Positions 15,090-56,442 are shown, numbered from the stretch's first letter. The stretch: 64,000 bases of DNA from Eledone cirrhosa (GCA_964016885.1 OZ024740.1:88970001-89034000), one strand, 5' to 3'. The notes: a model not told the origin generated them from the letters alone. Translations and numbers: made by a program.

Positions 15090-17243
15090 CTACCCTCCCG
15101 GGTCATTATGGGGTTTGAGGGCGAGGTAAGTCCTACGCAATCTATGTTTACATGCAGTCACCAGTTCATCTTTCTTGTTTAGGAGTTGGTCCGTCGATAC
15201 AGCATTTGTAAAGTTTCTTCCGAGCAAAAATTGCACGGACGGCGTCCTCCCGTGTAAGACTTGGCTCTGGATAGTAATCTCCAAGTGAGATCATAGGTGA
15301 TGTTGTTGTCCTTGAGGTCCCATATGTGGCCCGAAAGTGTAGTGGCGTGACGCCGGGCCGGGTTTCGGAAGGTATGTCTATGTTGGTATAGCCGGGTCTT
15401 GAAGTCACATGCGGTTAGTCCTATATAAGCTTTGTTGGAGGTGTCCGTCCTCACGTTGCACTGGTAGATCACATTACGGTCTCTGCATCTATTGTCGAGT
15501 GGGTAAATGGATCTATCCGGACAGTTACACCTCCTGGTCGGCTCTCCACTGCTATTTAGGTTATTTCTGCCATCGGGGTTGAGTTTTTTGTTGTTAGAGG
15601 AGACGATGTTTTGTGCGAAGTTTGGTGTAGTGCTGTAAGAGAGTTTGATGGTATTTTTGTTAATTATGTTGTGGTAGCGGTGTTGTAGTGGGAAGTGTTT
15701 TTCAATGAGCCTAAAGAATAGTTTCCCGATGGGAGTTGTCACCTCTACGTTGTGGGGAAGATTGAACCATGTTACATTGCGTGAGAGGCGGTGTCTCCTG
15801 CTGGTTCCGCTAATGGGAGCTGGACAGTAGGATATTTCCTCCCGGAAACCACTCCGCTTGATGGCCTGGTTGTAATAAGGCGCATGTTCATAGAATTTCC
15901 GCTCATTAGCTGACAAACAGGATATGCGGAGGGAGATGTTTTTGACCAGGTTGTTGGTGATGTTTCTAGGATGGTTTGATCGGCGGTGGATGTAGTGCAG
16001 GTTGTCATTAGGTTTCCTGTATGGATAGTACAGGTCGTTTTCGAGGTCGAGGGTCACGTCCAGGAAGTTTACTCGGCTCAGGGACGTTTGTAGAGTTATT
16101 TTAAATCCCCAGTCGCGGAAGAAGCTGATTAATTGTTTCCGGACCGGATCTGTACTACTGGGGTTGTACCCTTTAAGGGTAAGGAGCCCATCATCACGGT
16201 ACAATCCACCACCGAATGCAGGAAACATATCGGTGAGTTTGGCTATTAGGAATAATCCTATAAGATCTGTGACCTCCGCCGAATCCGTGGCGCCCATGCT
16301 GACGTCGAAAGGTGAGTCGGGAGCTCTTTTTATCCAATTAGAGTCGTCAAAGAGTAGGACTGTCTTCCTGGCGTGGGGGATGATTTTTCTTTCCTGATCG
16401 GTGATGTACACAAGTGTATCGGCGAAGTCCAAGGCGGCAGTAAATAGCGGTAAGGTGATTGAAGTATAGTAGCTCTTTATGTCGAACTGTATGAATTTAG
16501 TGTCTCGTCTATCCTCCATATTGCCGAACCATGAGATTACTTCTTGGGTGTTGATCCATAGGCTAAGTCGGGCGTGTTGCTTGACTTTTGGTATCACGCG
16601 GTCTAGGATATTTTTGCTGATTCTCCCTATGTCGGACTTCGTTGGGCTAATAAGCCTGATAGAGGGTTTACGGTCAAAATCGGATTTATGGTCCTTCAGT
16701 GTGAAGTATGGTGTCCGTGGGTCTAGGGGTTCCGTGCGGTAGGCGACCCCGAGGCTGGAGGTAATTTGTTGTCCATCTCGATTTATGTCCTCGATGCAAG
16801 AGTGGTTGGCCTTTTTATAGGTGGAGTTTCGGCTGCTCCTGATCAGTGTGTGGTATCTGTCAGGGTTGAGAAAGTATAGGTTCCCAGTTTTATCCGAATG
16901 CACCATGATGTCATTGCTGTTATCATACTCTGTTAAGTTGCTACGGAGTTTTTGTAGGAATCGGCTGTGTCTGGGTTTAAATTTAATGTTCTTGACCAGT
17001 TGGAAGGGGTCATTCTCGAAGGGTGAGAGCGAAGGGTTCGGGGGGGGGGGATTTGTAGGTAATAAATCCGAATCTCTCCTTGGTGCCGAAGTCCTGGTTG
17101 TCGCAATATCTGTCATAGAAAAAAGTTCTCCATCTAAGTCTTTTCGCAAATAGATCGATTTTTTGCGTGAGCATCCGAAGGTAAAGTTTTTTCGGTGGGA
17201 TTGGGATGTTCTTGGTAGAGAAGTCGATGTTGTGTTTTCGCAT
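15090..17243 (-). pseudogene. Penelope-like RT + GIY-YIG endonuclease, two frameshifts (poly-G ~17045; 1-bp loss ~15197)
   Basis: RT motifs QFDIKSYY, MGATDS, LYRDDGL, VNFLDV; CxC...C linker; VIY...YIG endonuclease; C-terminal CxxC...CKH. Confidence 0.9.
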
Positions 17244-17416
17244 GGTGCGGGTGAAAGGAATTGAGCTTAGCGGAAAAGTCTGGATACGGCGTGGTAGGGT
17301 CGCAAAGTGCTCTACTACGGGAATAGGAGCTAGATAACGAAGGAAATGTGGTAAGGAACCAGGTGGACCATAACGCACCAAAGTACTCATTACTTAGGGT
17401 AGTAGAGTGGGTAATA

Positions 17417-36657: not shown

Positions 36658-39487
36658 TTACAGATATATACTCAGAGTAGGCCCATTCACTCGGGCCATT
36701 CTTGCTTCTCTCACCCATCTTTCAACAAAATGCTGGGAAGATAGCACTTCCCTCTCTACTCTGATTTTCCTTTTCAAATGATATTTGAAAAAGTCAATCA
36801 GAGCATCACCGAAGAGGTAAGTGCTCGTTTTCAGCCCTTTCAAACGTGTCCACCATACTATCTCTTTCGCCATGGCCACCAGACAGATAAAAACTGCCTG
36901 CCCTTCCCGGCTAAAGGAGGAGAGCGGGGCAATCCTCACGATGGACTCAGATGATAGCCGGATCAGTCCTACACGCGACAGCAGGTGTTCGACATAAACC
37001 CACAAGTCAGCAATTTTCGGCCACTGGACGAGTGCGTGCAGGACGGTTTCGTCGCCCTGCGCGCATCTCGGACATGCCCGGCTGACGGCACCTCCATGCC
37101 TGTAGAGTTTATACCGAACTGGCAAGGCTCCTCGGTAGCACTGCCAGGCCAGAGATTTCTGGAAGTTGTCCATAGGCCCTGGCCCGAAAGTTCTTCCGAA
37201 GAGATTGGCTAGTTGATTTTCGTCGACGCCTAGAGTTTCCCCAAGTACGTCGTCGCTCTTCCCCTCCACTAATCCTTTATAGAACACCGAGGTGGAGTTT
37301 CCACCTATCACATTGCCCGATTGGTCGAGGGCTGTGAGTGCCTGAAGACATTCCAGTCTCCAGGCGCTCCCTCTTGGTCTCCGCTTGACCCAGGACTGCA
37401 GCACCGTCAAGGAAACGAGCTGGGGAAATACGTGTCTAGCAAACGGCGACCACACCTGCTCACCGTCGAGGAAGAGGTGGAGATCTCGTAGCCTGAGCGC
37501 GTACCTGCGCATCATCAGCCACGACATGCCCAGCCCTCCACGTAGCGGGTGTTGACAACAGATGGACCGCCTGACCATCGGAGCGCGTCACTTCCACAAA
37601 AAGCGAAAGAGCAAACGCTCCAGCGCAGTCAGGCGAGGCTTAGGACAAGGTACGACAGTCAGGCGGTAGCAGATGACAGATGCGATGTACGCGTTAGCCA
37701 CCTCCGTTCGACCTTTCAGGGATAGCTTCCTTTCCGCCCATTTCCGGGTGAGAGAAGCCACCCTGCTCGTCACCTCGTCCCAGTTTTTGTTCGTCTGGAG
37801 GTCCGGACCAAACCAGACCCCTAGTAATTTGACGGTCCGTCCGTCCAGCGTCCGGTGACGCTGTTGGACGTGCCTCTCCAGGTGCCGAGCTGCAGGCCCA
37901 CTGACTTTTCCTGGTTGATCATTGCTCCTGTCACCGCTTCGTATTCTCTTAGTGTAGTGTCGATCGCCTCGATGTGTTTGGCGTTCGACACCACTACGGT
38001 GACATCATCCGCATATGCTGACACGGATCTTCCGCATCCTAGTTGGCGCGGGACGCCCGTCAACATCTCCAGTTTGTGCAGTAATGACTCGAGATTCAAT
38101 ACGTACAAGAGGGACGAGAGGGGACATCCTTGGCGGACTGAGCGCATGATGTTGAACGGTTCCGACCGGTGACCATTCACTCTCACCACAGAGCAGATGT
38201 CGCTGTGCATGGCAGCGATCCAGCGATCCAGACTAAAGTCCATCCCTCGACCCGGCCCACCGCTGCCCCCGAACAGCTAAGCGAAGTATCGATGAAAAGC
38301 TTCACACATTTGCCCGGGATCGAGTAGCATGCGCCCGTCGTGGTCAACCAAAGACCGGATCGTGGCTTTGTTGCCACGACGCGCCTCCGCCACTCGGGCC
38401 CATTGAACGGCTTTCGTCCCCTCGTGTTTGAGAGCAAGCACCCTTGCTCTGACAATGCAGCCTTCATGCTTTGCATTGAAGAATTGGTCAAGGGCCAATT
38501 TCGCCGCAAGCACGTCGGTCGCAATGCCTTTGCTAAGCGCCTCGTCTAATGTTCTAACAGTTCTCCCTCTGCTCTATTTTTCTCTATTGCTAAAGCCTTA
38601 CTAAACCTAATCGATTCTATTCTAATCGCTCTTTTCAGAGCAAACCACCACTTGTTGTTGATGATGGCCCTCGTCAACGGCGGCTTAACTAGTTCGCTAA
38701 TCCGATCTCTGTAGGCCTTGCGCGCTGGTAAGGACGCGTTTAGCTTCCAGTAGCCGGTACCTCGTCTATGAAGCCTATCTAAATCAAGCACACAGATCAC
38801 GAATTTGTGGTCCGTGTAGCTGACTATCTTGAATTGTGGACAGCTTATGCTAGACCTATCTATTTCCCTACAAAATACTCTATCCAGATATGATCTGGAT
38901 GAACCTATGCGATTTGTTCAAGTCCACATTGGCACATTCGGGAAATCCAATCGGTACCTGTCAGACAGTTCAAAACGCCTGAGCTGGTTGGTGAGGCTCT
39001 TGCACCCTCCACCCCTATCCGCTAATCCCACACAGTCCCAGCGTGCATCTAAGATCCCGTTCCAGTCGCCCACTGACACTAAAGATCGGGACGTTCCAAG
39101 AAAGGTCTCCAGACGTCGGAAGAAATCAGGCCGCCCTGCTCCTGTCGGGGCATAGACGGCCACTAGCCTGAAAGCTTGCCCGTCTTGTCTGGTCACGTCC
39201 AGCACCACCAGCTTACCCTCTGGGTCCAGGAAGATGGCCCGTATGGCGAGATCCAAACCTCTCCGAAAAAGCACAGCAACTCCTCCCCCCGATCCAGGCC
39301 GGCTGGGAGATGCGTACACATCGTAGCCGCCGAAGATCGGTGCGAAGGCCCGTGCTTCGGAGATTCTGGTCTCGCTGATGGCCACTACATCTATGTTTAG
39401 TGACCTGAGGGCGTTGAGCAGGTGACCCTGCTTCCATGACGACCCCAAGCCACGCGCATTTATGCTGCCTATTCTGAGTGAGGTCAT
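36658..39487 (-). pseudogene. Tx1 ORF2 (APE endonuclease, RT, C-terminal zinc-binding motif), disrupted
   Basis: SINARGL, ISET, VYAP, GDWN, YLDRVF; RQGCPLS, AYADDV; CPRC...H motif. Confidence 0.9.
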
Positions 39488-39522
39488 GTTTAAAATAGAG
39501 TGGAAAAGATTGGAAAGACCAC

Positions 39523-41400
39523 TTACCGTACTTTTCGTAGAGGAGGGATGGTTTTTCCATCCCTTTTCACTTGATCGTCTGGTGAAGGGACCGTTGAATC
39601 GTCCCTTCGGCTGGTAGTCGGCTCTTCTATGAGTATGTCCGAATATACTCTTCGGTTGATAATGCCTCCTAGGTCTCTGAAATCACCAACTGCGTTGGGG
39701 AATTTCGTTTTAAGGTTTGTGTATTGTTTCTGTGCTATTTTTATCATTCTTATGTTAGTTGGCGTTTTGATTGGTGCTGGTATTATGTAGTCGTGTTGTG
39801 AAATGTCTGTGTGTTCAATTATGTAAGTCATTAGTTTCTTGTTGTGTGTATTTATTGCCGTGCATTTGTTTTTCTGGGGGTGGGGTGTGGTTCTGCTATT
39901 TTCTTGTCGTTGTTGCTGGGTGTGTGTGTTTTGTTGTTGTGTTTGCGATGTTGGTGCTTGTGGTAGTGGTGTTGAAGGTGTTGTTGGCGGTGGGGTTGTC
40001 ACCGGTGGTGATGGTGGTGCTAGTGTGGGTGGTGATGGTGTTGGTGGTGTTGCTGCTGTGAGTCTCTTTGCAGTAGACTTTACCCTTTTTTCATTTCTTT
40101 CCTCCCTTTTAAAAGGCGACGATGCGCTGCTTCTGCGTTTGTGCTTTCTTACGACCTTTTGCCATCCCTCTCCCACCTCACACTCCATGTCTGATTCTGT
40201 GAGGTCGGGGAGGGGTACCAGCTCCACTCTTTCACTTGTTGTTGTTGGTGATGTTTGCAGTGGAGTCTCTGTTGGAGCTGCATTTGGTATTGCTGTTGTT
40301 GTTGTTAATACTTCCACTGCTGCTGCTGTTTTTGATTTCCGTGGCGTGGGTATGGGTGCCATGGACCTATCGTTCCTGGTTGCCGCTTGTCCTGTTGCTG
40401 GTAGCCGTGGAGCCGCTTTTCGGAAGGAGGGGGATTTTCTCCTTTCTCAGGGTCTTCTCGTTGCAGAAGTCGCTGAGGTGATTCTTCGATCCACAGCGAA
40501 AGCATTTCGGGCGTTTGCCCTCAACACTTATGGGCAGTTGAGTGCCGTTATCCAAGTCTATCACATCCGGGATAGCTTCGATGCACTCCTGGTTGGTTTG
40601 GATTAACATCTCAATGGAGGTGCCGAACCAATCTTCTCTTACTTTTGTCTGTACTTGCAGTACAGTTGTTTTGTCCTCGATTCCGACGAGGACAGACGTG
40701 GCCAGCCAAGAAGGGGCCACCCCCGGGGGGGGGGGGGGGCAGTTTGACCCTCACAATTTTTTGCCCGCAGTAGGAGGGCACCAACACCATTTCCTCGCTC
40801 CTTAGGGTCACTACGGATTGAGCCTTTGCCTCCTGGGGTGTGGCAAAAAGTAAGTCTACGGTGGCATATTTCTTGCCTCGGTTGATGTGCCTTTTCCGGT
40901 TTCACACAGACCCCAAGGCTTTTTGTATTTGAGCCTCTGTGGCTCTTTCAACCCTACAGGATTTTGTACTTACTGTACGGTACGTGACCGTACAGTGCTC
41001 TTGCGTTTCGAAAAATTTTTCCGCTGCCTTGCGGATTGCTCGGTGTCCAGTTTTTGTCACCATCTTCTTCGCTTCCACTAATTCCTCATTTGTTATGAGG
41101 ATTGTTTCCACGTTCTTCGCGAAACCTGCAAACGAGATTGGTATTTCTTTGCTGCTGGTGTTGTTGTTGTTGTCGTCAGAGCTGCTGTTACTTTTGTTGC
41201 TGCTGCAGGTACTACGACTACTGCCGCCGCCGCTGTTGCTGTGGTTGTTGTTGTTGCTGCTGCTAATGCTGTTGTTGTTTATGCTGCTGCTGATGCTGTT
41301 GCGGCTGCTACTGTTGTTTTCATTGTCACTGTTGCTGTTGTTATTACGGCTGCTACTGCTATTATTCCTGACGTCAGACGAATGAAATGGGTTTTCGCAT
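39523..41400 (-). pseudogene. Tx1 ORF1 (gag-like, CCHC zinc knuckle), frameshifted
   Basis: CFRCGSKNHLSDFC knuckle (~40500); N/S-rich N-terminus and P/T/Q-rich C-terminal half; stop 35 nt before the ORF2 ATG; start position uncertain. Confidence 0.75.
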
Positions 41401-41892
41401 TTCCCGCACACCTGTTTCGTCGTTGTCGTCGTCGTGGAGAAATATTGCACGCTTTGCACGAGACTTTTCTTTTCTGTCGTCGCTTGTGAAAGAGAAGGAA
41501 AACGAGAGAGACACATTTAAAGAAGGGAGGGAGAGAGACGATCTTCTCTCAGCTGTAGTGACAATTGAGGAAGAAGAAGACGGAATGAGTGAGAGTGACC
41601 TATGAACATTCTTTTTCGTAACCATGTTGTTTTTTTTGTTTAAAATGTATATTGGGCACAAAACCCCAATAAGCAGTTATTTAACCCCGAAGGGCCAAAT
41701 AACGGGCAGAAAGGCCACTCTCACGAGGAGGAGGGTGTTTTTGTCTACAAGCTGGTTAAAGTTTTAAACAATTTACAATTGTTATAGCGTTCAAAATTTA
41801 CAATACCTTACAGAGCCGAGCCTCCGTCAACCATAGCATTCAATAATAATAATAATAATACTATTACAAATCACGTGAAGCAACAGAATAAT

Positions 41893-43973
41893 GATTTCTT
41901 TATTAACCACAAGGGTTTACATAAAGTAGACATTAAGGACAGTGCAGGACAATACAGGACGTTACAAATGGGCATTTCTGCGTGTAAAAAACAAAAACAG
42001 ATGATGTAACAAAAAATAACAATGAACAATTCTCCAATAGGGGGGAGACTTCGGAGGGACATTTGTGGAGAAAGCCCAGTAAAAGGCCACAATGACCCTG
42101 ACCACCAAGGCAATTGCCCTCTCCCAGTTTTCTACCTTTAATTTACAGATATATACTCAGAGTAGGCCCATTCACTCGGGCCATTCTTGCTTCTCTCACC
42201 CATCTTTCAACAAAATGCTGGGAAGAGAGCACTTCCCTCTCTACTCTGATTTTCCTTTCCAAATGAAATTTGAAAAAGTCAATCAGAGCATCACCGAAGA
42301 GGTAAGTGCTCGTCTTCAGCCCTTTCAAACGTGTCCACCATACTATCTCTTTCGCCATGGCCACCAGACAGATAAAAATGCCTGCCCTTCCCGGCTAAAG
42401 GAGGAGGGCGGGGCAATCCTCACGATGGACTCAGATGATAGCCGGATCCGTTCTAAACGCGACAGCAGGTGTTCGACATAAAACCACAAGTCAGCAATTT
42501 TCGGACACTGGACGAGTGCGTGCAGGACGGTTTCATCGCCCTGCGCGCATCTCGGACATGCCCGGCTGACAGCACCTCCATGCCTGTAGAGTTTATCCCG
42601 AACTGGCAAGGCTCCTCGGTAGCACTGCCAGGCCAGAGATTTCTGGAAGTTGTCCATAGGCCCTGGCCCGAAAGTTCTTCCTAAGAGATTGGCTAGTTGA
42701 TTTTCGTCGACGCCTAGAGTTTCCCCAAGTACGTCGTCGCTCTTCCCCTCCACTAATCCTCTATAGAACGCCGAGGTGGAGTTTCCACAGATCACATTGC
42801 CCGATTGGTCGAGGGCTGTGAGCGCCTGAAGACATTCCAGTCTCCAGGCGCTCCCTCTCGGTCTTCGCTTGACCTAGAACTGAAGCTCCGTCAAGGAAAC
42901 GAGCTGGGGAAATACGTGTCTAGCAAACGGAGAACACACCTGATCTCCATCGAGGAAGAGGTGGAGATGTCGTAGCCTGGGCGCGTGCTTGCGCATCATC
43001 AGCCACGGCATGCCCAGCCCTCCACGTAGCGGGTGTTGACAACAGATGGACCGCCTGACCATCGGAGCGCGTCCCTTCCACAAAAAGCGAAAGAGCAAAC
43101 GCTCCAGCGCAGTCAGGCGAGGCTTAGGACAAGGTACGACGGTCAGGCGGTAGCAGATGACAGACGCGATGTACGCGTTAGCCACCTCGGCTCGACCTTT
43201 CAGGGATAGCTTCCTCTCCGCCCATTTCTGGGTGAGAGAAGCCACCCTGCTCATCACCTCGTCCCAGTTCTTGTCCGTCTGGAGGTCCGGACCGAACCAG
43301 ACCCCTAGCAATTTAACCGGTCCGTCTGTCCAGCGTCCGACGACGCTGTTGGACGGCATGGACCTGCCTCTCCAGGTGCCGAGCTGCAGGCCCACTGACT
43401 TTTCCTGGTTGATCATTGCTCCTGTCACCGCTTCGTATTCTCTTAGTGTAGTGCCGATGGCCTCGATGTGTTTGGCGTTCGACACCACTACGGTGACATC
43501 GTCCGCATATGCTGACACGGATCTTCCGCATCCTAGTTCGCGCGGGATGCCCCTCAACGTCTCCAGTTTGTGCAGTAATGGCTCGAGTGTCAATGCGTAC
43601 AAGAGGGACGAGAGGGGACATCCTTGGCGGACCGAGCGCATGAAGTGGAACGGTTTCGACAGGTGACCGTTCACTCTCACCACAGAGCAGATGTCGCTGT
43701 GCATGGCAGCGATCCAGCCTCTGAAGACCGTCCCAAAGCCAGCCGCCCCCAGGACTGCCGCTAGGTAACGATGGTCGACCCTATCGAAGGCTTTCGATTG
43801 ATCTAAATTGATCAAAGACCCACCCTTGCCAGGTTCCCTAGCTACCCTCTCTACGATGTATCGCACGAGGTGGAGGTTGTCGTGGATGGATCTGTCGGGA
43901 ATTGCGCATGTCTGCGCCTCTCCCACCAGACCACCAACGACAAGCGCCATCCTCTTTGCTAGCACCTTGGCCA
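41893..43973 (-). mobile_element. Tx1 LINE copy B, 5'-truncated in RT
   Basis: LDQSKAFDRV, RQGCPLS, AYADDV; 3' UTR highly similar to copy A. Confidence 0.92.
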
Positions 43974-43974
43974 G

Positions 43975-44320
43975 TGATTCTGGGCGTGAGAAAAATATAT
44001 TATCGATTATTGTTCGGGGGATCTTGGTCCAGGGTCCACGGAGAATTCCTCGAGATCCCTAACCTACTCTAAAGACATGGAAGTGCCGTCCGCTGGGCCT
44101 TTTTGAGACCCGCAAATGGCGACGAAATCGACCAGCTGTCATATGTGCCTTGTTTGAACTTTGCTAACTTGTGGGCTTATGTTGAACAACGGCTGTTCGA
44201 CTATGTTACATGCTTTTTGCTTTATATTTATCACGTTTTGCACGCAAACTCTCATTTTCTATCTTTCTGTATCGACTTTGACATTTCTTTAATATAGCCA
44301 TGTGTGGCTAATAAAAAATC
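43975..44320 (+). mobile_element. Old Tx1-related 3' fragment
   Basis: FANLWAYVEQ similar to IADLWVYVEH; tail gctaataaaaaatcatt. Confidence 0.55.
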
Positions 44321-45289
44321 ATTTTCATTGAAGAACATCGGATGGCGAGGTTAACCTCCCAATTAGTTTATTGAAAGCTGGATTTAATTTGCAAGCAGGG
44401 TCCGAGCGACAACATCTGCATTGAGTCTGCGTGCGCCTGTAAAATCATCACCATCATCATTATCATCATCAACATAAGGGCAATGGATCTGGCAGAACTA
44501 CTAGTTCAAATCCCACTAAGTAATTTTACAGTGATCGATAAAATCGTCCTTCCCTCACTGCAAATTGCTAGCCTAATTTCAAAATTGGGAACTATAATGA
44601 TCATCAGCATTAACCTCATCATTAGCTTTAATTCGGATAATATGACTTGCGGTATTTGTTTATTTTTTATCAACTTTGCCTCTCATCTTACTGCTGTCCT
44701 TGGAATCGTGTACTAGTGAATTTCATGGGCTCTATATTTTCCTCACCCAAATCAATGCCATTATACTGAAATTTGGAAATAATTCTCATCAATATCATCA
44801 TTTATGTCAAATTGGATTCCCGTCTACTCTTACGCTAACATAAAGTACACATCAATTAATCTTGTCGGTTAAATCACTTTCAAAAGTGTGATTTTAACGT
44901 ATGTTTAAAATAATAATTATTGTTGTTTTTGCTGCATCCTGAGTGATATCTAGAAGAAATACAAGATGTATCTGTTGTATTTGTTTTCTCTAAAATAATT
45001 CAGATTTCTTGTGTTTATTATACTGGAAGTTAGAAGGGCTTTATTTAATGGGAGAAACATTACTAATTGTTGTTTATCACTAGTTTCTTGACGGATTAAT
45101 TTGAACTTTGTTAGGCTGATGGCAGTATGAGATTAATTTCCACAAAAGCGGCAGCTAAATTCCTCCTTCTGAGGTTAAGAAAGATACTAGTATTTCATGC
45201 ATTACGAACCTTATTGTAATAAATCTTCCATGATTAAGGATAGCGTTTGGAAGCTGTAATGCCTCCAATTGCCCACAGCCTTTTACCAG

Positions 45290-46210
45290 CTGGCCACTAG
45301 TATCGGTGGAAAATCCACCTAGGCGTTCTGTAGAGGACTAGTGGAGGGGTAGAGTGACGACGTTCTCGAGGGGACCCTTGGGCGTCTAAGACGATCAGCT
45401 GTTTGCTCTCTTCAAGAGAACTTTCGGCTCGGGGCCTATGGACAAATTCCAGAAATCCCTGGCCTGGCATTGCCTGCCAGAGAGAGTGCCGGTTCTAGAT
45501 AAACTCGAGAGGCACGAAAGTGACGTCGCTGAACCTGTGCAAAATGCGCGCAGGGTGACGAAACCGTCCTGCATGCACTCGTTCAGTGCCCGAGCATTGC
45601 TGACTTGTGAGGCTATGTCGAACAGTTGCTGTCACATGTAGGACGGATCCGGTTATCGACTGAGTCTATTGTGCAGATAGCCCCACCGTCCTCCTTCAAG
45701 GAGGATGAAGGGCAGGCAGTTTTCATCTGCCTGGTGGCCATGACGAAAGAGATTGTATGGTGGACAAGGTTGAAAGGATTGAAAGGGATACTTACCTCTT
45801 CGGCGAATCACTTATTAACTCATTCATGTTTTACTTGAAAAGGAAAACTCAGAGTGGAGAGGGAAGTGCTGTCTTCTAGTAAGTTTGTTGAACGGTGGGT
45901 GAGTGTTGCGAGTCTGGTCCGAGTGAACTCTGAGTAGTGCCCGTAGACTGAGGAGCGGGACAACTGAGAGAGGGCGCTTGCGCTGGTGGTCAGGGTTGCC
46001 GTGGTCTTATGTGTGGTTTTCGCCACGCATAACCCTCGGAGGTTTCTCACCTATTGGGGATTTTTGTTGTTTGAAATTTTTTGATTTGTTTCACATTTTT
46101 CTATCTTCTTGTTATCACCCTTTTACACGGACAAAACCCACTGTGTATCGTCTGTACCGTTCTGTGGCATCTTTAACGTTTTTCTCCCTTTTGGCCAATA
46201 AAGAAAACAT
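45290..46210 (+). mobile_element. Diverged Tx1-family 3' fragment
   Basis: MDKFQKSLAWHC, GRIRLSTESIVQIAPP, KEIVWWTRLKGLK match the ORF2 C-terminus. Confidence 0.85.
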
Positions 46211-46414
46211 TACTAACATTCAACGGAAATAACTATTTCATGGGTAAAAATGTTTTTATCTTTATATTTGTTACATGGGAAGAAAGGTTTGGGACTAAAT
46301 TGTAGCTTGGGATTACGTAGATGCTCGCTAAATTTGTGGTAATCCTCGATAAACTAACCAACAAAACCCAGTTGTCAGTAATAATAATGATTTTTCTGCT
46401 AGTAATAATAACAA

Positions 46415-46416
<2 letters not shown>

Positions 46417-46470
<54 letters not shown>

Positions 46471-46496
46471 ATAATAATAATAATAATAATAATAAT
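46417..46496. repeat. (TAC)n(TAA)n microsatellite
   Basis: Direct reading. Confidence 0.95.
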
Positions 46497-48668
46497 GATT
46501 TCTTTATTAACCACAAGGGTTTACATAAAGTAGACATTAAGGACAGTGCAGGACAATGCAGGACGGTACAAATGGGCATTTCTGCGTGTAAAAAACGAAA
46601 ACAGAGGATGTAACAAAAATAACAATGAAAATAACAATGAAAAATTCCCCAATAGGGGGGGAGACTTCGGAGGGACATTTGTGGAGAAAGCCCAGTAAAA
46701 AGCCACAATGACCCTGACCACCAAGGCAAGTGCCCTCTCCCAGTTTTCCACCTTTAACTTACAGATATATACTCAGAGTAGGCCCATTCACTCGGGCCAT
46801 TCTTGCTTCTCTCACCCATCTTTCAACAAAATGCTGGGAAGACAGCACTTCCCTCTCTACTCTGATTTTCCTTTTCAAATGAAATTTGAAAAAGTCAATC
46901 AGAGCATCACCGAAGAGGTAAGTGCTCGTCTTCAGCCCTTTCAAGCGTGTCCACCATACTATCTCTTTCGCCATGGCCACCAGACAGATAAAAACTGCCT
47001 GCCCTTCCCGGCTAAAGGAGGAGGGCGGGGCAATCCTCACGATGGACTCAGATGATAGCTGGATCCGCCCTAAACGCGACAGCAGGTGTTCGACATAAAC
47101 CCACAAGTCAGCAATTTTCGGACACTGGACGAGTGCGTTCAGGACGGTTTCGTCGCCCTGCGCGCATCTCGGACATGCCCGGCTGACGGCACCTCCATGC
47201 CTGTAGAGTTTATCCCGAACTGGCAAGGCTCCTCGGTAGCACTGCCAGGCCAGAGATTTCTGGAAGTTGTCCATAGGCCCCGGCCCGAAAGTTCTTCCGA
47301 AGAGATTGGCTAGTTGATTTTCGTCGACGCCTAGAGTTTCCCCAAGTACGTCGTCGCTCTTACCCTCCACTAATCCTCTATAGAACGCCGAGGTGGAGTT
47401 TCCACCGATCACATTGCCCGATTGGTCGAGGGCTGTGAGCGCCTGAAGACATTCCAGTCTCCAGGCGCTCCCTCTCGGTCTTCGCTTGACCCAGGACTGC
47501 AGCTCCGTCAAGGAAACGAGCTGGGGAAATACGCGCCTAGCAAACGGCGACCACACCTGATCACCGTCGAGGAAGAGGTAGAGATGTCGTAGCCTGAGCG
47601 CGTGCCTGCGCATCATCAGCCACGGCATGCCCAGCCCTCCACGTAGCGGGTGTTGACAACAGATGGACCGCCTGACCATCGGTGCACGTCCCTTCCACAA
47701 AAAGCGAAAGAGCAAACGCTCCAGCGCAGTCAGGCGAGGCTTAGGACAAGGTACGACGGTCAGGCGGTAGCAGATGACAGACGCGATGTACGCATTAGCC
47801 ACCTCCGCTCGACATTTCAGGGATAGCTTCCTCTCCGCCCATTTCTGGGTGAGAGAAGCCACCCTGCTCGTCACCTCGTCCCAGTTTTTGTCCGTCTGGA
47901 GATCCGGACCGAACCAGACCCCCATCAATTTAACTGGTCCGTCCGTCCAGCGCCCGACGACGCTGTTGGACGGCACGGACCTGGATCTCTAGGTCCCGAG
48001 CTGACTTTTCCTGGTTGATCATTGCTCCTGTCACCGCTTCGCATTCTCTTAGTGTAGTGCCGATGGCCTCGATGTGTTTAGCTTTCGACACCACTACGGT
48101 GACATCGTCCGCATATGCTGACACGGATCTTCCGTATCCTCGTTCGCGCGGGACCCCACTCAACGTCTCCAGTTTGTGCAGTAATATCTCGAGAGTTAAT
48201 ACGTACAAGAGGGACGAGAGGGGACATCCTTGGCTGACTGAGCGCATGATGTGGAACGGTTCCGAAAGGTGACCGTTCACTCTAACCACAGAGCAGATGT
48301 CGCTGTGCATGGTAGCGATCCAGCCTCTGAAGACGGGCCCAAATCCAGCCGCCCTCAGGACTGCCGCTAGGTAACGATGGTCGACCCTATCGAAAGCTTT
48401 CGACTGTTCTAAATTGATCAAGGACCCACTCGTGCCAGGTTCCCTAGCTACCCTCTCTACGATGTATCGCATGGGGTGCAGGTTGTCGTGGATGGATCTG
48501 TCGGGAATGGCGCATGTCTGCGCCTCTCCCACCAGACCACCAACGACAAGCGCCAACCTCTTTGCTAGCACCTCGGCCAAAATCTTGAACTCTGTGTTTA
48601 GCAGAGTTATGGGCCTAAAATTATCTATGTTATCCCCCTTGTTCGGATCCTTTCTCAGCAGCGCCACA
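46497..48668 (-). mobile_element. Tx1 LINE copy C, 5'-truncated in RT
   Basis: NFRPITLLNTEFKIL through the C-terminus; 405-aa open segment. Confidence 0.92.
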
Positions 48669-49033
48669 GACAAATTTAAAATATTGCTACTGCTTACAAT
48701 TCCAGTGTTGGCAAACGTAGCAATATTTACAATGGTGGTGTCGGTGTGAGGTGTTGGATTGTGAGGAAGGAGTGACTCTGATGCATCCATTATTGTTCAA
48801 AGAAAAATTGTTGTTTCATAATTATAAAAAGTTTAAACTTTGGGCTCAAGGCCCCGATATTTTTGAGTGTCCTTTTCAGAAATCAATGTATGTGCACTTA
48901 TATACAGTTAACAATAAAAATTTTCCATGAATGGCAATTTTAAACAACTGAAAATAACAAACCTTTGCGGAGGTCACGATGATACGATTTACTACGTAGG
49001 TCACCAATAATAATAATAAAATTAATAATAATA

Positions 49034-52000
49034 CTTTCTTTATTAACCACAAGAGTTTAGATAAAATAGACATTAAAGACAGTACAGGACAATACAGGAC
49101 GGTACAGATTGGCATTTCTGCGTGTAAAAAAAAGAAAACACAGGGGACGTAATAATAGAACAACAATGAAAAACTTCCCCAATAGAGGGGAGTCTTCCGA
49201 GGGCCATCGTGGAGAAAGCCCATTAAAAAGCGAGAGTGACCCTGACCACCAGGGCAAGTGCCCTCTCCCAGTTTTCCACCTTTAATTTACAGACACATAC
49301 TCAGAGTAGACCCATTTACTCGGGCCATTCTTGCCTCTCTCACCCATCTTTCAACAAAATGCTGGGAAGAGAGCACTTCCCTCTCTACCCTGATTTTCCT
49401 TTTCAAATGAAATTTGAAAAAGTTAATCAAGGCATCACCGAAGAGGTAAGTGCTCGTCTTCAGCCCTTTCAAACGTTTCCACCATACTATCTCTTTCGCC
49501 ATGGCCACCAGACAGATAAAAACTGCCTGCCCTTCCCGGCTAAAGGAAGAGGGCGGGGCAATCCTCACGATGGACTCAGTTGATAGCTGGATCCGTACTA
49601 CACGCGACAGCAGGTGTTCGACATAAATCCACAAGTCAGCAATGCTCGGACACTGGACGAGTGCGTGCATGACGGTTTCGTAGCCCTGTGCGCATCTCGG
49701 ACATGCCCGGCTGACGGCACCTCCATGCCTGTAGAGTTTATCCCGAACTGGCAAACTCCCCGGTAGCACTGCCAGGCCAGGGATTCCTGGAAGTTGTCCA
49801 TAGGCCCCGGCCCGAAAGATCTTTCGAAGATTTTAGCTAGTTGAATTTCGTCGACACCTAGAGTTTCCCCAAATACATCGTTGCCCTTCACCTCCACTAA
49901 TCCTCTATAGAACGCCAAGGTGGAGTTTCCACCGATCACATTACCCGATTGTTCGAGGGCTGTGGATGCCTGAAGACATTCCTGTCACCAGGTGCTCCCG
50001 CTCAGCCTTCGCTTGACCCAGGACTGAAGCTCCGTCAAGGAGACGAGCTGGGGGAAGGCGCGTCTAGCAAACGGAGACCACACCTGATCACCGTCGAGGA
50101 AGAGGTGGAGATGTCGTAGCCTGAGCTCGTTTCTGCGTATCATCAGCCAAGGCTTACCTAGCCCTCCACTTAGCGGGTGTTGACAGCAGATGGACCGCCT
50201 GACCATAGGAACGTGTCCCCTCCACAAAAAGCGAAAGAGCAAACGCTTCAGCGCAGTCAGGCATGGGATTAGGACAAGGTACGACGGTCAGGCGGTAGTA
50301 GATGACGGACGCGATGTATGCGTTAGCCACCTCCGTTCGACCTTTCAGGGATAGCTTCCTCTCGACCCATTTCTGGGTGAGAGAAGCCACCCTGCTCGTC
50401 ACCTCGTTCCAGTTTTTGTCCGTCTGGAGGTCCGGACCGAACCAGAACCCTAGCAATTTAACCGGTCCGTCCGTCAAATTCGCGACGACGCTGTTGGACG
50501 GCATGGACCTGCCTCTCCAGGTGTCGAGCTGCAGGCCCACTGACTTTTCCTGGATGATCATTGCTCCTGTCACCGCTTCGTAGTCTCTTAGTGTAGTGAC
50601 GATCGCCTCGATGTCTGTGGCGTTCGACACCACTACGGTGAGATCATCCGCATATGCTGACACGGATCTTCCGCATCCTAGTTCGTCGGGACCCCCTCAA
50701 CGTCTCCAGTTCGTGCAGTAATTGCTCGAGAGTCAATACGTACAAGAGGACGAGAGGGGACATCATTGGCGGACCGAGCGCATGATGTTGAACGGTTCCG
50801 AAAGGTGACCGTTCACTCTCACCACAGAGCAGATGTCACTGTGCATCGCAGCGATCCAGCCTCTGAAGATGGGCCCAAAGCCAGCCGCCTTCAGGACTGC
50901 CGCTAGGTAACAATGGTCGACCCTATCGAAAGCTTTCGACTGTCCTAAATTGATCAGGGACCCACCGGTGCCAGGTTCCCTAGTTACCCTTTCTACGATG
51001 CATCACATGAGGTGGAGGTTGTGGTGGATGGACCTGTCGGGAATGGCGCATGTCTGCGCCTCTCCCACCAGACCACCAACGACAAGCGCCAACCACTTTG
51101 CTAGCACCTTGGCCAAATACTTGAAATCTGAGTTTAGCAGAGTTATGGGCCTGAAATTATCTATGTTATCCTCCTTGTTCGGATCCTTTCTCAGCAGCGC
51201 CACTGCTCCTCGGCTCACAGAGCTGGGAATTCTCCAGTTCTGTTGCCAGTTGTAGTAGACGTCCGCCAAGTGGCCTCCGAAGAAGTCTGGCATCTCTACT
51301 TAAAGTTCCTAGGGCAGACCATCCAAACCAGGCGAATTACCCCTTGTGTAGCCAGTCATTGCCTCCCGTACTTCAGCGGCTGTTATCGGCTTTACGCAAC
51401 ACTCCGCCTCAGTGGCCGAGAGCCGCGGCAGTCCGTCGAGGTAGACACTATAGTCCATCCCTCGACCCGGCCCGCAGCTGCCCCCTAACAGCTGTGCGAA
51501 GTGTCGCTGAAAAGCTTCACACATTTGCCTGGGATCGAGTAGCATGCACCCGTCTTGGTCCACCAAAGACAGGATCATGGCTTTGTTGCCACGACGTGCC
51601 TCCACCATTCGGGTCCATTGAACGCTTTCGTCCCTTCGGGTCTGAGAGCACGCACCCTAGCTCTGACAACGCAGCTTTCGTGCTTTGCATTGAAGAATTG
51701 GTCAAGGGCCAATTTCGCCGCAAGTACGTCGGTGGCGATGCCTTTGCTAAGCGCCTCGTCTAATTTTCTAACTAGTTCTCCCTCTGCTCTATTTTTCTCT
51801 ATTGATAAAGCCTTTCTAAACCTAATGGACTCTATTCTAATCGCTCTTTTCAGAGCAAACCACTACTTGTTGTTGACGATGGCCCCCGTCAACGCCCGCT
51901 TAACTATTTCGCTAATCCGGTCTCTGTAGGCCTTGCGCGCTGGTAAGGACGCGTTTAACTTCCAGTAGCCGGGTCCTCGTCTATGAAGCCTATCTAAGTC

Positions 52001-52850
52001 AAGCACACAGATCATGAATTTGCGGTCCGTGTAGCTGACTATCTTGAATTGTGGACAGCCTATGTTAGACGTATCTATTTCCCTACAAAATACTCTATCT
52101 AGATATGATCTGGATGACCCTATGCGATTTGTCCAAGTCCACATTGGCACATTCGGGAAATCCAATCGGTACCTGTCAGACAGTTCAAAACGCCTGAGCA
52201 GTTTGGTGAGGCTCTTGCAACCTCCTCCCCTATCCGCTAATGCCGCACCGTCCCAGCGAGCATCTAAGATCCCGTTCCAGTCGCCCACTAACACTAAAGA
52301 GCGGGTCGTTCCAAGAAAGGTCTCCAGACGCCGGAAGAAAACAGGCCGCCCTGCTCCAGTCGGGGCATAGACGGACACTAGCCTGAAAGCTTGCCCGTCT
52401 CCGCTGGTCACGTCCATCATCACCAACTTACCTTGTGGGTTCAGGAAGATGGCCCGTATGGCGAGATCCAAACCTCTCCGAAAAAGTACAGCAACTCCTC
52501 CGCTCGATCCAGGACGGCTGGAAGATGTGTACACATTGTAGCCGCCGAAGATCGGTGCGAAGGCCCGTGCTTCAGAGATTCTGGTCTCGCTGATGGCCAC
52601 TACATCTATGTTTAGTGACCTGAGGGCGTTGAGCAGGTGACCCTGCTTCCATGACGACCCCAAGCCACGCACATTTATGCTGCCTATTCTGAGTGCAGTC
52701 ATGTTAAAATGGAGTGGAAAAGATGGGAAAGACCACTTACCTTATTTCTCGTAGAAGAAGGATGGTTTCTCAATCCTTTTCACTGCTTGCGGCCTCATTC
52801 GGAAGGATGTCCTTATATATCCTCCTACAGAGTGTTTGTTGGAAAGATTC
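49034..52850 (-). mobile_element. Tx1 LINE copy D (whole ORF2 pseudogene, truncated near the ORF1 end)
   Basis: APE 51863-52702, SPGLDGLP, RT fragments, 3' UTR; more diverged subfamily. Confidence 0.92.
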
Positions 52851-53241
52851 TGCGTGGAAATGATATAATTATAAAGTCTAGAAGCAAAATCAGAAAACAA
52901 ATAAAGAATTACAGCACATCAATGATAAACATCCGAAACACTTTCTGAAAAATCAACACCATCATTCACAAAAACCAAAGGCTAATATTTTTGTCTTGTA
53001 TAATAAATATCTGGGGCATTAACTAATTACGTCGAAGAAAATCGCAATTTAAATTGGGGCAAAATAATAGAGGCATTGACTTTTGCGAAACATTACGCTG
53101 TTGGGGGAACTACTGGTGACCATTGGTATCGCTTTCAGAAGAGGTGCCTTGTCTAGTATTTTGGGTCGATGCCATCGATGTGGTTTGATATTTTCCATAT
53201 CTACTCAATATATGAGACAGAAAAATAGACGACTTGTCACT

Positions 53242-55093
53242 ATGCCTCCTGCTCGCAAGAGAAAGAAGTCCGAGGAAGACCAGCAGCCTAGTACGTCCAA
53301 AAATCAAAAAAAGGAACCTACAAAAGCGAAGGAATATACTGTACCAGGATACGACTTTCTAGGTCCTGGGACTAACATAAAAAAAAGAAATGTTGGGTAC
53401 CACGAAATCGGTTAGATCAGGCAGCCAAAGAACACGATCTAGCCTATGGAAATCCAGATATACAAACCTGGTACGCTGACAAGAAATTCATCGAAGAGGC
53501 AGTTAAAAGTGGACCCACAGGTATATTGGCTGCAGCAGCAATCACATTGAAACATTACGCATGCCTTGAAACATACTTTCGGGATAGTAACACCGACACT
53601 GTTGATAGTGGTGGGACTGCTAATATGGCTAGCATGGAAACGGATGAAGAATCTCAGAGAGTGGATGAAGGAGGGGGTTGGCAGGGTAGACAAATGGGGC
53701 ATCAAGAGGACACTCCAACACCCAGTGGACCACATCGAAGAGAGGTCACATTTACACGGAAGTTCCACAACTATGTAAAAGCACAGATATGAATGCTTCC
53801 ACTGGGAATTTTGTCACTTTAAAAATGGAAGGCGAAAATCAACCTGCTAGCCTAAAAGACTCAATGACAAGAGGTAACTGTAGATCAAAAGATTATATAG
53901 TACCATACTGGCTAACCTCATGGATAAAACCAATAGAGTGGGAGGTACAGGTCAGAATGGCAACAGCATATCGTGTGAAAGAGGCTGGTTTCAAGATTTC
54001 AAATATAACCTGCTCTGAGTGGATTGTTTCAAGAGGTGAGGATCAATTCATAAATAATCCATTACCTTATCTTCAAATATATGTTGATTGAGAGCGATAT
54101 ATCGGATATAATAATCTCAGAGGTATAACACAAATACCCAATAACGGATTCCAAAGAACACATCCGACCAATATGAACGAACTATTGTTACCACAATATG
54201 AATACTGGTACATGGCAAACAAGAAGATGCTTATCGACCACGGCGCAACATTTACAGACGATGTGGCGGAATAAGAAATGTATAAACTACATGACTGGAG
54301 AGGATTTTACGATGTTGAGGAGATAAGACAGGGTGACAGTTTCGTACACAAATGGAAAAATCACTCTCGTCTAACAAAACCACTCACTAACACTGTATGG
54401 AACGGAGGGATAATACAACATGGCGCTATACTTAATAGTGGAGTATGGTCACAAGCACACCACCAAGGTGCTGGATCATTAGAACTAATGAATGGCTGTA
54501 TCAATATATCATCAGCACCGTATACTGGTACTGCACTCTTACAGGGAGCACAATGGTTAGACTATCACAACCACAGAAGAATAACAAGATTGGGATGGAT
54601 GGAAGATCTAGCAATGGAAGAAAGAAACGAATATGGACTGAATTATCAATGCATTCGTGAATCAAAAACTGCGACAGGTGAATTCGAAACCACAGGAGGA
54701 TTATACACAGTCGCAGATAGAACACTGATAAACAACGTATTGTACACGTCAGAAGATCTTCCTGATATGGTATTAATAAACGTGCCATTGAAAATAAATG
54801 GAAATAATTCACAGCAAGTCTTGCTGTTCGCCTTTGAAATTGAATACTTTCTAACTTTAGAAGTAGATTACGATCAGTTGCATCATCCTCAAGTAATACA
54901 AACGTGTAACTACCTAGCATCAAACAGCACGATGTCAGATTCAAGCTTCAGATTTGATGTACATTGTGTAACTGATCCTGGTAGACACCTACACGGTCAC
55001 GCAGTTAAAATCGTGCAACATGGGCGGACTTTACATGTTAAAGATAGGAACGAACCTTATAAATACAAGAGCGAACATTTCGTCAACAAGTAG
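53242..55093 (+). pseudogene. VP1: Endogenous parvovirus-like capsid VP1 with PLA2 domain (frameshifts/stops near 53385, 53790, 54090, 54275)
   Basis: N-terminal basic NLS-like PPARKRKK; Ca-loop VPGYDFLGPG; after a frameshift LDQAAKEHDLAY...YADKKF (parvoviral PLA2); capsid-like blocks TFTRKF, IVPYW...KPIEW...YRVKEAGFKISN. Confidence 0.85.
55022..55065 (+). promoter_or_regulatory. Putative internal promoter for NS1 (GC box + TATA)
   Basis: GGGCGG at 55022-55027 and TATAAATA at 55058-55065, 45 nt before the ATG at 55111. Confidence 0.4.
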
Positions 55094-55110
55094 GATCTCG
55101 ACTGCTCAAG

Positions 55111-56442
55111 ATGATGATACCAATTAACGAAACACCAGGCGGCATGGACGAAGACTTCAAAAAAAGATTCAATGAAGATTTCTTCAATGGTCCTACGAAT
55201 ATTGAAAACCTAATAGCGTATACATGGGTATATCGCTGGAAAGAAGAAGATGAATTCACATGGAGGGAGCCGAATTTATATAAGCACCCAAACCAAGTTA
55301 TCGAGTATAAACCTTATAAAGAAGAACATGTCCTCCTATTCCGACTCTTGTGTACTTTCTCGTGTATAATTGTTGACCATCCAAAGGACCCTCTCGAATT
55401 AAACACTTATGGGTGCGTTGAATGCCATCATATCATGGCATTCAACGCACCCATCCGACCAGCATACGTTTCAAACACCTTAAAAAACAATACTCAAGAA
55501 CGACCCGATCAATGGTTATGAAACAGTAGCAGTCAAAATTAACTCACCAGCAGGATTTAGTGAATACTTACAAAAATACAGATTAATAGCCTGCAATAAC
55601 ATAAAGACTACATCACAAAGAAGAATGTTATCGACAATAGCCAAGGAGGATCTGACACCAGCCCACAAAGAAGACAGTACTATCAAGATAAAAACGAACG
55701 ATACTGTTAGAGGAAACAAGTTTAATTTTGTAAAGGATCTAATGATACTTTACGTGTACAACAGGAAAAGATATTTATGGTGCTGCGTGGGATGCTGTCT
55801 ACAGAAATACATCTAATCTCTCCCCCCTATTACAACCAGCAGCCACACAATTACAAATCCAAAACAGAATTAGTCTTATCTGGGAACAAATTCAAGAAAA
55901 AAGGCTGATGCTAAGCAGTGATAGCAATAGATATTGGTCAGTAAACACCAGTCTGGCGATATACGAACAGTGGACAGCCTTTCACTGCATCAGCCATATT
56001 AAATTTGCAAAATATTTATTTGATGTGTGCCATAAGGTTTTACCGAAAATAAATGCACTACATATAACCGGTATACCAAATAGCGGCAAAAGCTACATAT
56101 TACGTTCGGTACTAAAACGGATTGATGAATTGCGGTAGAATGCGATGCCAGGCTAGTGACAATTACATTCGGTACCTGCGTTGATAAAACATTAATATTT
56201 ACGGATGAAATGTGGTTCACGAACACGAATATTGAGGAGGCCAAATGAATCCTAGAGGGTACCGAAACCTATGTAAACATCAACAAGAACGTATCATGTA
56301 TAGAACACCGTGCATTAGTACGGGGAATAGCGATCCTTGGGACCGTGTTATGCAGGACGAAGCAGCTTTGAGGGCCAGAATGTTCATATACAACACGAAC
56401 AAGCCAATGCCGACTATTGGCAGACCATTGAAGATGTGGTAA
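55111..56442 (+). pseudogene. NS1: Endogenous parvovirus-like NS1/Rep (rolling-circle nickase + SF3 helicase), frameshifted
   Basis: Motif II-like CHHIM, motif III-like EYLQK; Walker A GIPNSGKS, Walker B LIFTDE, EEAK.ILEG, motif C CISTGN, Arg finger ALRARM. Confidence 0.85.

Follow-up and report, generated by a model that had tools for sequence, protein, structure and literature searches.

The monosense Parvoviridae (Parvovirinae, Hamaparvovirinae and the iteradensoviruses) share with the virus lineages described here a genome of 4–4.4 kb with terminal hairpins, an NS1 combining an HUH nickase with an SF3 helicase, and a jelly-roll capsid with a phospholipase A2 (PLA2) domain in VP1 (PMC6537627). 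Their gene order is NS-VP, whereas the order here is VP-NS. The accessible text of PMC11357303 gives all parvoviruses a left-hand NS and a right-hand VP, in the same sense or ambisense, and that of PMC9896142 reports a left-hand NS for each of 170 new genomes. Other odd layouts, with extra ORFs, bipartite genomes or splicing, appear in the accessible portions of PMC11125579, PMC8964545, PMC10267136, PMC6631224 and PMC6085071, none of them VP-first. The chaphama-, ichthama- and penstylhamaparvoviruses resemble the present lineages in heavy splicing, small upstream exons and large introns; in the available part of their description the skipped portion contains NS and VP forms the downstream exon, whereas these roles are predicted to be swapped here (PMC6631224).

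Penaeus monodon metallodensovirus (Metalloincertoparvovirus) is likewise a parvovirus from a marine invertebrate and falls in none of the three subfamilies, and its capsid matches our VP profile (E 4e-10) and fold (E 1.5e-7). It probably has the NS-left order. The accessible text of PMC11357303 calls its genome organisation unique. It differs from the present lineages in its homotelomeric 416-nt ITRs and in the absence of PLA2. Unclassified parvovirus-related sequences from marine molluscs, branching outside known genera, were described by Francois et al. 2016 (PMC5013282); the available part of that source gives no gene order, termini or splicing, and the sequences are set beside the VP-first lineages by description only. 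The circular Cah-bearing contigs of Buck et al. (10.1101/2024.03.25.586562) also combine NS1 with a parvovirus VP in a non-canonical genome. In the accessible text they exceed 5 kb, are circular and carry an extra gene, in contrast to the hairpin-ended genomes of about 4 kb here; they are set apart by description, and their supplementary maps may include VP-first contigs. A narrow phrase search of papers open without subscription returned no account of parvoviral elements in cephalopods, of a VP-first parvovirus, or of an NS1 intron holding the capsid gene.

The window, the whole stretch of 64,000 nt that was analysed, carries an element in which the capsid gene comes first. We put a probability of about 0.88 on its being a decayed copy of a linear VP-first parvovirus-like virus, likely a single-stranded DNA virus with rolling-hairpin replication. 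Its lineage is labelled e1, and a sister VP-first lineage e2. An earlier note on this DNA had placed a PLA2-capsid gene ending at 55093 and an NS1 starting from 55111, 17 nt apart on one strand, and this arrangement is confirmed. The features, in window coordinates, are these.

53086..53150, + strand: remains of the terminal hairpin on the VP side, comprising its inner arm and some of the loop; aligns to the hairpin arms of copies L030 and L026
53209..53214, + strand: decayed TATA-like box about 33 nt 5′ of the VP start, a predicted left promoter
53242..55093, + strand: decayed capsid gene (VP1) encoding PLA2 at its N-terminus, 51–71% identical by piece to the VP of copy L021
53329..53530, + strand: parvoviral PLA2 domain split across two frames (PF08398, E 0.013 and 0.022; alignment)
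55058..55065, + strand: TATA box inside the VP tail, a predicted internal NS1 promoter and the sole such word in the 3172-nt coding part
55094..55110, + strand: 17-nt spacer from the VP stop to the first NS ATG, free of hairpin and poly(A) signal and spanned by contigs
55111..56413, + strand: decayed NS1 (HUH nickase and SF3 helicase) with its C-terminus missing, 53–75% identical by piece to the NS1 of copy L022
55409..55454, no strand: fold-back palindrome of 46 nt (20-bp stem, 6-nt loop) over the nickase motif, a private lesion of the window copy
56070..56209, + strand: SF3 helicase Walker A (56070–56093) and Walker B (56195–56209), from six-frame translation and weak PF01057/PF00519 matches

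The VP gene runs from the ATG at 53242 to a stop ending at 55093, with two frame changes and 2 stops against a relative. FLGPG and DQAAKEHDLAY, its two PLA2 motifs, are in different frames, each with one of the weak PF08398 matches listed above, and an open-frame relative is above the PF08398 cut-off (E 6e-10). The window capsid also matches AAV capsids weakly (E 0.005). NS1 has three frame changes and 5 stops against a relative; its first ATG is at 55111, and homology to relatives begins at the ATG at 55144. Its fragments match Parvo_NS1 weakly (E 0.068), and the NS1 of L022 is above the PF01057 cut-off (E 1e-16). The nickase-like motif reported earlier is only partly original, because the palindrome at 55409–55454 coincides with the nickase region. 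The palindrome is missing from the translations of the relatives, which read HFHII at that place. The SF3 helicase motifs reported with it are present.

The extent of 53242 to 56442 given in the earlier note holds for the core and shifts at both ends. On the left, the element starts from the hairpin's inner arm at about 53086, and viral homology stops at 56413; the stop codon at 56442 reflects read-through into the flank. Thus the window copy has lost its right end and about 90 residues of NS1, and it also lacks the outer hairpin arm. The right flank past 56413 was scored as viral sequence and rejected (35–37, against a shuffled mean of 36). Inspection of the sequence bears out that there is neither hairpin nor poly(A) signal between 55093 and 55111, and reads support this junction: it is covered, together with the right flank, by one 5.28-kb short-read contig per run in all three runs (depth 8–11), the runs being of one sample from one study, which may be the source of the assembly. 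A RAD tag from a different individual maps to 53560–53810, in the capsid gene. Directly upstream of the element, a single LINE family (endonuclease PF03372, reverse transcriptase PF00078) has left several decayed copies at window 36658–52844. Elsewhere in the window, at 15179–17266 (−), lies a 695-aa open frame, which we take to resemble a Penelope-type reverse transcriptase with a GIY-YIG tail.

The protein features of the Parvoviridae are found in the better preserved relatives. The SF3 helicase of NS1 is above the PF01057 cut-off in open-frame e1 and e2 and in the stand-alone contigs L064 and L065 (see below), the window copy matching weakly by fragment, and the best PDB match of NS1 is AAV Rep. 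The N-terminal HUH nickase keeps its HFH-hydrophobic motif in e1, e2 and the related protein P0202, and is partly overwritten in the window copy. The capsid is of the parvovirus type, a single jelly-roll often accompanied by a VP1 PLA2, as judged from PF08398, profile and fold. Profile matches of VP include the capsids of AAV, goose parvovirus and P. monodon metallodensovirus; the top Foldseek matches are all parvovirus capsids, the query being the e2 capsid model (pLDDT 55), while the AlphaFold e1 capsid (pLDDT 36) was left out. Profile and modelled fold point to parvovirus capsids with no clear subfamily. Judged from these sequences, the VP-first virus would work like a parvovirus and have the family features tested, but its gene order is that of no described genus.

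Phylogenies of NS1 and VP, proposed in the earlier note, support the lineages and leave the position of e1 variable. The helicase tree holds 88 rows of at least 400 residues plus chosen close relatives, and the full-length trees 31 and 26 chosen rows, all without ICTV type species. In these trees e1 and e2 each have a support of 96–100, on a backbone without resolution. Lineage e2 falls with L064/L065 in one tree (support 89); e1 is a long branch that joins e2 loosely in one tree (87), not in two others. Holding all VP-first lineages together as one clade gives a p-AU of 0.098, which neither rejects nor establishes such a clade. The named proteins among 30 relatives looked up are from Turdus hortulorum parvoviridae sp., Pot worm parvo-like virus 2 and a Mactra antiquata gene, none of them close. 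The genus criterion stated in the accessible text of PMC11357303 is an NS1 identity of 35–40% over 80% of the length; the best named NS1 match here reaches 35% over 35% of the length, with type species outside the comparison. The mollusc-like host suggested earlier agrees with the host genome (3.0 Gb), which carries molluscan haemocyanin (39 PF14830 matches). The haemocyanin genes lie at C1:173.74–173.91 Mb and C26:21.93–22.02 Mb, and those on C1 have seven units each, presumably the octopod pattern.

The gene order was compared across copies in the same genome, where a DNA search gave 32 matches and family searches at least 29 NS1 and at least 28 PLA2 matches. Forty stretches around a part of these matches were mapped, with the window, against four open-frame proteins, adjacency being defined as less than 1.2 kb apart on one strand. 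The 41 stretches contain 30 VP-then-NS adjacencies (28 of the same lineage, 2 mixed) versus 6 NS-then-VP adjacencies, three of which are mixed-lineage and three between truncated pieces. The VP end is joined to the NS start in 19 of the 30, five in e1, window included, and 14 in e2. Eight further stretches contributed 2 full e2 junctions, 1 mixed-lineage chimera and 5 VP-only pieces, bringing the full VP-end-to-NS-start junctions to 21, in two lineages and on many chromosomes. Identity between e1 and e2 is 23–26% in NS1 and about 25% over the N-terminal part of VP. The genes are on one strand in all copies, unlike the opposite strands of ambisense densoviruses.

Several copies are rearranged. 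At L021:5655–5788 a fold-back inversion stands in place of the VP tail, and therefore the last residues of the 614-aa frame of L021 are not viral capsid. In L029, L034, L036, L063 and L068, e1 pieces are joined directly to e2 pieces; L068 has a cut e2 NS1 fused to an e1 hairpin arm and VP. Such joins could result either from co-infection or from repeated insertion at one site. Elements of both lineages stand in same-strand tandem at C12:9072000–9092000 (L022, L023), at C25 7.43–7.46 Mb and on C841. Viral insertions can be trapped in piRNA clusters, and these arrays could be a trap of that kind; piRNAs derived from endogenous viral elements are described for starfish in the accessible text of PMC6085071. 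A small Cys-rich frame, partly of local repeats, is found at L022:3822–4124 (−), 5′ of the e2 promoter region.

Relatives were also sought outside this genome. Protein searches of Logan returned 11, 6 and 4 relatives of e1 and e2. For the e1 lineage itself, stand-alone genomes did not turn up; its Logan relatives are known as proteins (VP 39%, NS1 46–60%). A profile search gave 1218 matches; among the best 150 listed was a clade of P0069, P0073 and P0074, with cluster member P0202, whose nickase domain matches best against e1 (E 1e-10) and e2 (E 1e-19). A metagenome scan with this P0202-type clade identified 2 loci from 193 candidate stretches, L064 (3471 nt) and L065 (4079 nt). The first metagenome scan, with the e1 alignment, gave 0 loci, as did viral-contig scans with each of the seven queries A1, A2, P0202, P0163, P0021, P0083 and A4. 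In L064 and L065 an open NS1 frame comes directly after an open capsid frame, both on one strand, with no host flank and no terminal direct repeat, and L065 terminates in a 72-nt hairpin. They are likely unintegrated viruses, short contigs not being proof.

The L064/L065 capsids are without PLA2 and match the IHHNV capsid family PF16530 weakly (E 7e-5 and 0.005). In these respects they are like the chaphama-, ichthama- and penstylhamaparvoviruses, and the best fold match of the e2 capsid model is Syngnathus chapparvovirus. The L064/L065 capsids are 31–35% identical to the PLA2-bearing e2 capsid, and PLA2 may have been gained or lost within the VP-first group. P0021 (an e1-like capsid) and P0202 (an L064-type NS1) both have 3807 nt as the length of their longest contig, which may be chance or may indicate a capsid/NS1 recombinant.

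The search for further VP-then-NS loci, which the earlier note had advised, was thus productive both in this genome and in metagenomes: the 21 full junctions and the two free contigs are VP-first, in contrast to the NS-upstream, VP-downstream order of monosense genera of the Parvovirinae, Hamaparvovirinae and Densovirinae. A standard NS-VP parvovirus with a local reversal of its gene order, through a deleted concatemer junction, a host rearrangement or misassembly, had been raised earlier among the objections to the observation, and the frequent rearrangements, fold-backs and chimeras among the copies would suit it. It is refuted by the independence of the copies, and its remaining probability is close to nil. 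The junctions are spread over many chromosomes and two distant lineages, both flanking genes are complete, the junction signals are conserved, and the free contigs as well as the contigs across the window junction have the same order. The capsid-first order is viral, not local. Since it recurs in about 20 copies and two stand-alone sequences, it likely marks an undescribed linear, hairpin-ended parvovirus group.

The ends of the copies reveal the form of the genome. In e1 a hairpin precedes VP, with stems of 39–63 bp in L026, L028 and L039; it is partial in L021 and L030, and L022, L068 and the window retain its inner arm only. Some 580 nt beyond the NS stop, L022 carries a second hairpin, unlike the first and rich in G+C, whose 23-base core has 3 matches in the 3-Gb genome, all in the cluster of L022 (control 0). 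The e1 genome in L022 measures about 4.3 kb from hairpin to hairpin. The e2 copy L044, about 3.9 kb, runs through VP, NS1 and a hairpin and back into NS1, 1.4 kb in all, as a tail-to-tail dimer, while L045 (e2) is a head-to-head join and L028 (e1) a fold-back. The e2 left loop occurs in two orientations, one in L044, L047, L048 and L052 and the other in L045 and L023 (flip/flop), and one motif is common to both e2 ends. Inverted dimers and flip/flop ends are the kind of footprint that rolling-hairpin replication leaves. The mechanism is set out in the ICTV profile (PMC6537627). Only terminal palindromes were used as a replication signature; non-terminal fold-back palindromes were dropped because they are found in host flanks too. 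The linear, hairpin-bracketed genome of 4–6 kb that characterizes the Parvoviridae is seen in L022, L044 and L065.

The earlier note had left two forms open, a linear genome with VP-NS order and a CRESS-like circle opened at integration. In such a circle VP would come first by chance. Circular parvovirus-like contigs are reported in the accessible text of 10.1101/2024.03.25.586562, and one Atlas PLA2-capsid cluster is mostly Cressdnaviricota (score 0.89). The copies themselves speak against a circular genome with one stem-loop origin, as in Cressdnaviricota or circular parvo-like genomes. A full NS end joined to the VP start of its own lineage, the wrap-around joint, occurs in none of the 49 stretches, and copies share the start hairpin. 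The two end hairpins differ, flip/flop forms and inverted dimers are present, and the free contigs have no terminal direct repeat, one of them ending in a hairpin instead. The circle is largely refuted already and very improbable. The genome is linear, as many independent copies, terminal hairpins and two stand-alone contigs indicate. From the least damaged copies, its layout would be VP-side hairpin, promoter, VP, NS1, poly(A) signal and a different NS-side hairpin, in about 4.0–4.4 kb, and its virions would contain single-stranded DNA.

One e2 strain is found, 98–100% identical, at four sites: L044 (C998), L045/L046 (C10), L047 (C14) and L048 (C5). These copies include inverted dimers and deleted forms, and their depth in the sample is 7–20 (single copy 8–11). 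RAD runs of other individuals have stray reads only at these sites. The four near-identical sites suggest a very recent germline entry, by a virus that would have infected this host. A high-titre infection was considered as the source of the young copies and rejected, the depth being near single copy. A parvovirus-derived mobile element that spreads in the host genome via NS1, in place of repeated captures of infections, could also bring one strain to C5, C10, C14 and C998 at such low depth. We consider it improbable, as the copies end raggedly, bear deletions and form inverted dimers, all typical of replication intermediates, the older ones are 65–75% identical with intact-looking capsid constraint, and relatives are found as stand-alone contigs.

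In e2 a leader of about 18 codons lies 5′ of VP and is conserved as protein in 13 of 13 stretches. A donor closes it 7 or 10 nt ahead of the VP start, canonical in 11 of them and with one substitution in the remaining two; a copy of 3941 nt has this donor word a single time. Downstream of the VP stop, all ten stretches have a pyrimidine tract with CAG, in frame and at exactly 15 nt from the NS body, and the apparent NS start codon is Leu in six of the ten. L064 and L065 follow the same plan of leader, donor and acceptor, with donor and acceptor both in phase 2 and an NS frame without its own start codon. Because the leader donor precedes VP and a phase-matched acceptor follows the VP stop, VP would lie inside an NS1 intron in e2, L064 and L065. 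In e2 and the two stand-alone contigs, NS1 is very probably produced by a splice that joins the short leader exon to the NS body and skips VP entirely. The e2 genome would have one left promoter; splicing would remove VP and make NS1, and unspliced RNA would yield VP past the short leader.

The signals of e1 are different. A TATA-like word at the distance seen in the window, about 30 nt, stands 5′ of VP in L021, L022, L026 and L030, and a leader exon or donor before VP is absent in all seven e1 stretches inspected. The junction TATA box is present in 7 of 8 copies, canonical in five, as a variant in L022 and as TATATATA in L055; L039 has none, and its NS start is deleted. In L027, L034 and L055 the box is 3′ of the stop codon, and therefore it is kept there, outside the VP frame, without codon constraint. 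In the window, L030 and L032 the word overlaps Tyr-Lys-Tyr codons and could be retained for protein reasons. A poly(A) signal follows NS1 at five of the six right ends checked. These elements argue that e1 NS1 is probably expressed from a promoter of its own within the VP tail, both RNAs ending at the poly(A) signal 3′ of NS1, which would mirror the usual parvovirus plan.

It is less likely that e1 NS1 comes from the left promoter, by splicing or re-initiation. Splicing is predicted for the sister lineage, and L022 has an AG-ending, pyrimidine-poor word before the NS ATG. However, the e1 stretches have neither leader exon nor donor, the acceptor is not conserved, e1 NS1 keeps its own ATG, and the TATA word persists outside the VP frame in three copies. 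A plausible history would be that VP entered the intron of an NS1 leader and that e1 later swapped the leader for a promoter.

Taken at its widest, the analysis would point to an undescribed, subfamily-level branch of Parvoviridae in marine invertebrates, still circulating and with the gene order reversed, a reading to which we give slightly better than even odds. Its older plan would be a capsid gene nested in an NS1 intron, one splice choosing between replication and capsid proteins, and the lineage of the window would have exchanged the intron for an internal NS1 promoter. The branch would have entered the germline of an octopod-like mollusc dozens of times, the latest entries being those at the four near-identical sites.

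Reviews present the NS-left, VP-right order as universal among parvoviruses, and the programme of early NS and late VP expression is deduced from it. A VP-first group that is linear and hairpin-ended breaks the rule, with two different predicted ways to make NS1, one of which would have the capsid gene nested in the intron of the replicase. Gene callers truncate these NS1 proteins, whose main exon has no start codon. In a mollusc group with poorly known viruses, the copies offer a fossil record of DNA viruses and targets for their detection by PCR.
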